A stretch of 64,000 bases of DNA from Escherichia coli 042 (GTDB lineage Bacteria > Pseudomonadota > Gammaproteobacteria > Enterobacterales > Enterobacteriaceae), in NCBI RefSeq assembly GCF_000027125.1, contig NC_017626.1; one strand, written 5' to 3'. Positions 63,329 to 64,000 of the stretch are shown here, one piece after another (within the stretch, counting starts at the first letter, position 1; every line of letters starts with the position of its first letter). The notes under the pieces are model-generated. The model was given only the letters and a program-made list of their open reading frames with translations, ran no database searches and was not told where the DNA came from. Made by a program: the position numbers and the translations under genes.

Positions 63329-63744
63329 CTACATTTGATGCTTTTTATCTCTTAAAGATTCATAGATCTGTTGACAAGTCACTCCTGCGATGTAGCGTTC
63401 GTCAGCAATTTCAGCATAAAGCTGAGCTTCTGCTGCAATATCTCCGAGCATGTTGGTGAGCATTCCTTCGGCGGTTTTGGTTGTTTTGCCTCTGACGGCA
63501 GCGGCAAGATCTGCGGTATGCTTCGCTGCGTCAAGGCGTATGGCATATTTTTTTGCTTCGGCACGCAACTGGTTAACACTATCAGACAGATAAGCAGCCC
63601 TGGCAGAAATTTCAGCAGATTTCTGTTGCGCATCTTTAACAGCCTCATCACGGGCTATAGTTCGCCCCTGTTCAATTATTCGAGCAGCAAATTGAGCATT
63701 TACCTCTTGTGATAATGCGGCACTATCCCCCAGCAGGTTAATGC
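63329..63744 (-). CDS. rzpQ: Rz-like i-spanin periplasmic domain; no in-frame ATG and no N-terminal TM segment found
   Basis: Open frame encodes a coiled-coil-type sequence (…[58 protein letters not shown]…); the first start codon is a TTG at 63568; the frame is closed by TGA at 63745-63747, inside the lysozyme 3' end. Confidence 0.55.
63379..63633 (-). CDS. rzoQ: Rz1-like o-spanin lipoprotein embedded in the Rz frame
   Basis: +1-frame ORF inside Rz: signal peptide with lipobox ([23 protein letters not shown]) followed by a Pro-rich mature region. Confidence 0.6.
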
Positions 63745-64000
63745 GCTCTCCTGGTCACGACGAATAACCTGACCGTAACAGTTATTTGAACGAATGCGGC
63801 AATCGCGTCCGCCATCCTTAATCCACCAGCGAATCGCTTCGCATGCACCTTTACGATCACCAGCATTCAGCCGCTTATAAAACGTCGACGGGAAACACTT
63901 ACCGGGGCCAATGTTATAGGGACAAAATGACGCGATACCCGCTTTTTGTGGTTCGGTCAGTGGTACTTTAATATTGCGCTCCACCCATGCCAGCGCCTTA
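63700..64000 (-). CDS. rrrQ: Phage lysozyme/endolysin, 3' portion (N-terminus beyond the window end)
   Basis: C-terminal 100 codons (…[41 protein letters not shown]…) resemble phage lysozymes, at the position upstream of Rz/Rz1. Confidence 0.7.

Follow-up and report, generated by a model that had tools for sequence, protein, structure and literature searches.

Why should an Rz-like reading frame that directly follows an endolysin gene have neither an ATG nor a membrane anchor, next to an embedded Rz1-like gene that looks intact? This question is raised by the lysis cassette at the end of the 64,000-nucleotide stretch of the Escherichia coli 042 chromosome analyzed here (contig NC_017626.1), which is referred to below in its whole length as the window. 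The initial annotation of this DNA left two possibilities, i.e. a loss of the 5' end of Rz or a rearrangement of the lysozyme-Rz junction, and both of them turned out to be true through a single 108-bp deletion. We consider it very probable that this one deletion destroyed the i-spanin gene rzpQ among the lysis genes of a lambdoid prophage of the Qin type, with a spanin-null state as the predicted outcome and neutral decay as the likely cause.

The rrrQ-rzpQ junction

The elements of the cassette are as follows.

63700..64000, minus strand: 3' part of the altered endolysin gene rrrQ', which continues beyond the end of the window (evidence: translation; DNA 100% identical to K-12 rrrQ as far as the junction)
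63723/63722, minus strand: deletion junction, at which 108 bp of K-12 Qin are missing; it reads GGGGATAG joined directly to TGCCGCATT
63329..63722, minus strand: remnant of rzpQ, codons 36-165 plus the stop codon TAG, which is the periplasmic coiled-coil part alone, the start and the anchor being deleted
63379..63633, minus strand, +1 frame within rzpQ: o-spanin gene rzoQ (the Rz1 equivalent), from its ATG at 63633 to 63379, 84 aa, intact
62966-62754, minus strand: cold-shock gene cspI, downstream of rzpQ/rzoQ

This gene order, with rrrQ followed by rzpQ with the embedded rzoQ and then by cspI, is the same as that of the Qin prophage of E. coli K-12 (LYSQ_ECOLI, RZPQ_ECOLI, and RZOQ_ECOLI). 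When the lysozyme-Rz junction was aligned pairwise with the intact K-12 Qin cassette (K-12 record L001), positions 63300-64000 were identical base for base save for a single 108-bp gap that covers the rrrQ stop codon and the rzpQ start, and therefore the peculiar layout of the locus is not a chance observation. In agreement with this alignment, a megablast search with positions 63000-64000 against 5,426 complete E. coli genomes matched the Qin rrrQ-rzpQ region at 100% identity, but always in two pieces, with 1,109 bp spanned for the 1,001-bp query.

In K-12, the rrrQ gene (177 aa) ends with GGG ATA GAA CAG TGA and overlaps the GTG start codon of rzpQ as GTGA, and the rzpQ product is a 165-aa protein annotated as DUF2514. 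K-12 Qin retains the 108 bp at this overlap, whereas the window copy is left without the start and the anchor of rzpQ. The deletion begins at the second base of codon 176 in rrrQ and ends with base 104 of rzpQ, and it removes E176, Q177, and the stop codon of rrrQ together with the native GTG start, codons 1-34, and two bases of codon 35 of rzpQ. The deleted part of rzpQ contains the whole N-terminal transmembrane anchor IFMVIFLVLSGFIVGNVWS (residues about 4-22; Kyte-Doolittle (KD) mean 2.18). Neither microhomology nor direct repeats were seen at the deletion ends; a TGCTG pair near the deletion was considered as its ends and rejected, because it would predict a different junction.

The deletion also alters the endolysin. 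Past the junction, rrrQ' reads seven new codons up to a new TAA stop at 63702..63700, and the C terminus ..TCWGIEQ of K-12 RrrQ becomes ..GIVPHYHKR, with VPHYHKR in place of EQ. The full RrrQ' product, as seen in public relatives, has 182 aa, compared with the 177 aa of K-12 RrrQ. The window holds only the C-terminal 93 codons of rrrQ, which match K-12 up to residue 175. The Pfam domain Phage_lysozyme (PF00959) spans residues 33-167 of the 177 residues of K-12 RrrQ, and thus the changed tail of RrrQ' lies outside the domain. The N terminus of the endolysin and the holin lie beyond the window end and are known from near-identical relatives such as locus L003, in which the holin gene and ydfR are found upstream of the endolysin gene. 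The holin and the RrrQ' endolysin probably still work, which is predicted for RrrQ' from its unchanged residues 1-175 and from the end of the domain at residue 167.

The rzpQ remnant and the embedded rzoQ gene

The Rz frame on the minus strand comprises 141 open codons (63754 to 63332) that carry Rz-like coiled-coil sequence, and it is closed by a TAG stop codon at 63331..63329. The initial annotation had bounded this frame by a TGA at 63745-63747; such a stop exists, but it is located 10 nt away, at 63757..63755, and farther upstream the frame meets many stops within rrrQ. As the same annotation had stated, no ATG precedes the TTG at 63568 in this frame, and no GTG was found there either. The other possible starts are weak non-canonical codons, i.e. 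ATT at 63742, CTG at 63736 and 63733, and ATA and ATT codons between 63679 and 63610.

The lack of an anchor, which had also been claimed, was borne out by hydropathy analysis. The maximum Kyte-Doolittle mean over 19 residues (KD19) in the Rz frame was 0.61 versus 2.18 for residues 4-22 of intact K-12 RzpQ, and the frame contains no hydrophobic segment that could act as the N-terminal transmembrane domain of a type II membrane protein. A transmembrane search in the three minus-strand frames of positions 63560-64000 found no segment joined to the Rz frame, the only hydrophobic stretches being the signal of RzoQ and an out-of-frame stretch in rrrQ. The latter (63812 and downstream; KD 1.77) was rejected as an anchor, since it is also present in K-12 and is unconnected to the Rz frame. 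Hence, neither the start scan nor the hydropathy analysis provided the in-frame start with a hydrophobic segment that would have spoken for an intact Rz.

The homology of the remaining part is clear. The Pfam model DUF2514 (PF10721; 161 positions; cut-off, 26 bits) matched the window frame at model positions 38-160 (E=1.1e-25, 91 bits) and intact RzpQ at positions 3-160, and the PHROG model phrog_312 'Rz-like spanin' (173 positions) matched the window frame at positions 45-172 (E=9.2e-43) and intact RzpQ at positions 15-172. An alignment with homologues indicated that residues 36-165, the periplasmic domain of RzpQ, are fully conserved in the remnant. In the same alignment, a start codon with a hydrophobic N-terminal segment after it was present in K-12 RzpQ and in each of its counterparts in phages Tritos, N15 (gp55), Fraca, and phiNP, i.e. 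every aligned homologue starts upstream and none shares the architecture of the window copy. The DUF2514 i-spanins TRITO_49 of phage Tritos, which is intact and 99.4% identical to K-12 RzpQ, and gp55 of phage N15, with 59% identity, are homologous over residues 36-165 and are encoded directly after the endolysin gene, but they have the start codon and the N-terminal hydrophobic anchor, neither of which is present in the window copy. The isolated Escherichia phage Tritos (OV696610.1) is a live relative with the same lysis-cspI-gnsB module. RzpQ is labeled 'uncharacterized' in UniProt, neither RzpQ nor RzoQ is represented by an NCBIfam model, and a literature search on rzpQ and rzoQ yielded nothing about their function.

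Within the remnant, rzoQ is as intact as the initial annotation had proposed on account of its LTSC lipobox and Pro-rich sequence. The gene is byte-identical to that of K-12, and its product exactly matches the public sequence RZOQ_ECOLI. RzoQ has a signal with a hydrophobic core (KD19 2.34), the lipobox L20-T21-S22-C23 typical of an o-spanin lipoprotein signal, and a short mature part of 62 aa that contains 9 Pro, as expected for an o-spanin. A lipoprotein that has no Asp at position +2 is sorted to the outer membrane, and the +2 residue of RzoQ is Val. RzoQ was matched by phrog_11621 'Rz-like spanin' (E=1.9e-8), and the family PF28595:RzoQ is on record for the identical product in loci L004 and L005; a search of our local copy of Pfam with RzoQ gave no match. 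RzoQ was also considered as a unimolecular spanin, which was rejected because it is without a C-terminal transmembrane domain (TMD). Since the ATG of rzoQ and the sequence immediately upstream of it were not touched by the deletion, RzoQ is probably still made.

Two further products have been called at this locus.

63329..63568, minus strand: 79-aa ORF from TTG 63568, within the rzpQ remnant
63329..63742, minus strand: 137-aa 'DUF2514 family protein', public NCBI annotation from ATT 63742, without a membrane anchor

The 79-aa product is reported by gene callers wherever rzpQ is broken upstream, no Shine-Dalgarno-like sequence was seen by eye just 5' of TTG 63568, and the ORF is probably not a real gene. 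The 137-aa product corresponds to the gene at 6507-6920 of locus L003, where it is not flagged as a pseudogene; an AGGAG sequence sits 5 nt 5' of its ATT codon, and this sequence is plain rrrQ coding sequence in the intact alleles. Both the 137-aa ATT product and the 79-aa TTG hypothetical protein are probably mis-annotations of the truncated gene.

The order of the genes, in which rrrQ' precedes the rzpQ remnant and the latter contains rzoQ in its +1 frame, is that of a phage lysis cassette. The locus resembles lambda Rz/Rz1 in that the whole o-spanin gene is contained in the +1 frame of the i-spanin gene, directly after the endolysin gene, and in that the i-spanin has a periplasmic helical domain and the o-spanin is a short, Pro-rich protein with a lipobox (PMC5295617, PMC6139136). 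It differs in that lambda Rz belongs to another sequence family than RzpQ (DUF2514/phrog_312) and in that the i-spanin half of the window cassette has been truncated and has no means of membrane anchoring. Lambda Rz, a type II protein of the inner membrane, is anchored by its TMD and binds the outer-membrane lipoprotein Rz1 through its periplasmic coiled coils; loss of its start codon is lysis-defective, and a defect in Rz or Rz1 blocks lysis and leaves spherical cells (PMC5295617). More generally, i-spanins are recognized through their N-terminal TMD (PMC6139136).

By analogy with lambda, the i-spanin would need an inner-membrane anchor as well as the periplasmic coiled coil to bind the outer-membrane lipoprotein, and any product of the rzpQ remnant would be expected to remain cytoplasmic. 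The two-component spanin complex is thus predicted to be absent, its inner-membrane subunit being unable to be anchored, and this prediction would hold even if a little protein were made from ATT 63742 or TTG 63568, because the remnant lacks both the start and the anchor. [quoted passage not shown]

The allele in public genomes and a second lesion in the prophage

The exact 54-nt deletion junction was present in four loci (L003, L004, L005, and L020) from NCBI, ENA-metagenome, and Logan assemblies, and the identity of these loci to the window is 99.94-100% across 2.6-6.3 kb. Exact-protein look-ups, the sole route by which the deletion allele was found, placed the 182-aa RrrQ' on 86 contigs, including CBG34528.1 and the chromosome LR134246.1, and the 137-aa product (its ATT codon read as M) on 77 contigs, of which the longest has 5,241,977 bp; two complete chromosomes are among the contigs that carry one product or the other. 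The deletion is a genuine inherited allele that is common to a lineage and already has public copies.

A 54-nt query across the junction (27+27 nt, each side too short to seed alone) had no match among the 5,426 complete RefSeq E. coli genomes. The control query across the intact junction matched 2,089 of the same 5,426 genomes, and so the method works. The collection excludes NC_017626 and NZ_LR134246, which explains the negative junction search, and negatives for the deletion lineage in this collection have to be read with care. Neither the GTDB representative genomes nor the JGI metagenome contigs contained an exact match to a 30-mer across the junction. At least 1,000 contigs carry the intact RzpQ sequence of K-12.

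Further independent rzpQ-null alleles were found in public E. coli assemblies, i.e. W21* together with a frameshift (1-bp deletion), W30*, Q45*, R55*, and Q67*. They lie on the contigs L012-L018 and L021, three of which carry W30*, and the endolysin is of 177 aa where it is complete (L012-L015). This sample was conditioned on an intact 79-aa downstream ORF and is biased by its retrieval, so that the position and frequency of the alleles in it are uninformative.

The rest of the window places the cassette in its setting. The window consists of E. coli chromosome from the lsr operon through ydfJ and then of a Qin-type prophage inserted in ydfJ, and its best chromosome match among the 5,426 complete E. 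coli genomes was 99.6% identical. The prophage region covers about 35.7-64 kb and contains a full set of terminase, portal, head, and tail genes, in which respect it is far more complete than K-12 Qin. Two genes of this setting are listed here.

34340-35623, minus strand: ydfJ, truncated by the prophage, 427 aa, N terminus missing as in strain H15
47736-50314, minus strand: frameshifted tape-measure gene, in which a run of five C (C5) in strain H15 is reduced to four (C4) at about 49943

The change of C5 to C4 is the only frame-breaking difference from strain H15 in the structural genes, and as a result the tape-measure gene is divided into two ORFs, one of 161 aa (50314-49829) and one of 730 aa (49928-47736). 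Only 6 public contigs carry the shorter, 161-aa product. Four of these are short Logan contigs with 100% identity to the window across the 0.9-1.5 kb that they cover; the two longer contigs are only 96-97% identical around the product. Judging from these 6 contigs and from the identity of the four Logan contigs, the frameshift seems to be real and younger than the rzpQ deletion.

Two other differences were observed in the prophage. The ynfN gene (62252-62524, minus strand) appears intact in the window, with an A8 run at about 62459 and a 76-aa product called in L003; in the RefSeq annotation of K-12 and H15, ynfN has an A7 run and is marked as frameshifted. The segment 53424-53626 is locally divergent from strain H15, with an inserted CAG (3 nt) and a +1/-1 pair of indels that compensate each other; in H15 it corresponds to the DNA-packaging FI gene, and it looks like mosaic divergence rather than damage.

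Origin and meaning of the deletion

Other explanations of the locus were weighed against the loss of rzpQ by a real deletion. That the 108 bp exist in the genome and were dropped during sequencing or assembly could be suspected from a junction without microhomology that is absent from the 5,426 complete genomes and, as a 30-mer, from the GTDB representatives and JGI metagenome contigs. However, the identical junction recurs in independent NCBI, ENA-metagenome, and Logan assemblies, and the two protein products that it creates are found on 86 and 77 contigs with two complete chromosomes among them, which leaves an assembly artefact effectively refuted and with next to no probability. It is also extremely improbable that the truncated gene still provides a working i-spanin or spanin-like protein, be it from ATT 63742, from TTG 63568, or through a frameshift fusion of rrrQ' and Rz. 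The AGGAG upstream of ATT 63742 might allow low-level initiation, NCBI annotates the 137-aa DUF2514 protein as a normal protein, and the periplasmic domain is fully conserved; nevertheless, that AGGAG belongs to the rrrQ coding sequence and is found in the intact alleles too, and with no transmembrane or signal segment in frame the product could not reach the periplasm. The need for a membrane anchor in lambda Rz (PMC5295617) and the anchored N termini of all aligned homologues argue in the same direction. As for a fusion, rrrQ' and Rz are in different frames and neither a slippery site nor another frameshift signal was seen by eye, and such a fusion was rejected.

A different kind of question is whether the loss was selected, either because loss of the i-spanin blunts killing by the prophage or because the orphan RzoQ has a function for the host. 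This possibility concerns the cause of the same lesion and is compatible with the deletion as its best explanation. The several independent rzpQ-null alleles, the intact state of rzoQ and the endolysin in the deletion allele, and the persistence of the allele on about 80-90 contigs are in its favor, but the position of the null alleles upstream of rzoQ is an ascertainment effect of the conditioning on the 79-aa ORF, and intact RzpQ is found on at least 1,000 contigs and the intact junction in 2,089 of the 5,426 complete genomes. Moreover, the compared carriers share 99.9-100% identity with the window along 2.6-6.3 kb, as would fit a single clonal event, and neutral decay together with the tape-measure frameshift explains the data, so that nothing here requires selection. 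Selected disarmament or domestication is therefore considered unlikely, and the preferred reading of the rzpQ deletion is neutral decay in a resident prophage that bears a further lesion in its tape-measure gene.

A broader and very unlikely proposal is that E. coli lineages repeatedly disarm the outer-membrane step of Qin lysis and retain the endolysin and an orphan RzoQ. If that were true, the lytic cassette would have become a host-controlled device, e.g. for non-explosive release or envelope remodeling, and several routes, the 108-bp deletion among them, would converge on a disarmed cassette. As neutral decay, the significance of the deletion beyond annotation is small, since it is an ordinary prophage pseudogene that is already in public genomes and is mislabeled there as a normal protein. 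The locus would be better annotated as an rzpQ pseudogene (5' deletion) beside an intact rzoQ and an rrrQ whose product has a changed C terminus. The junction of 30-54 nt, with the k-mer CCTGCTGGGGGATAGTGCCGCATTATCACA, is a handy marker for one E. coli sublineage, and the rzpQ deletion and the tape-measure frameshift mark an otherwise complete-looking Qin-type prophage as defective.
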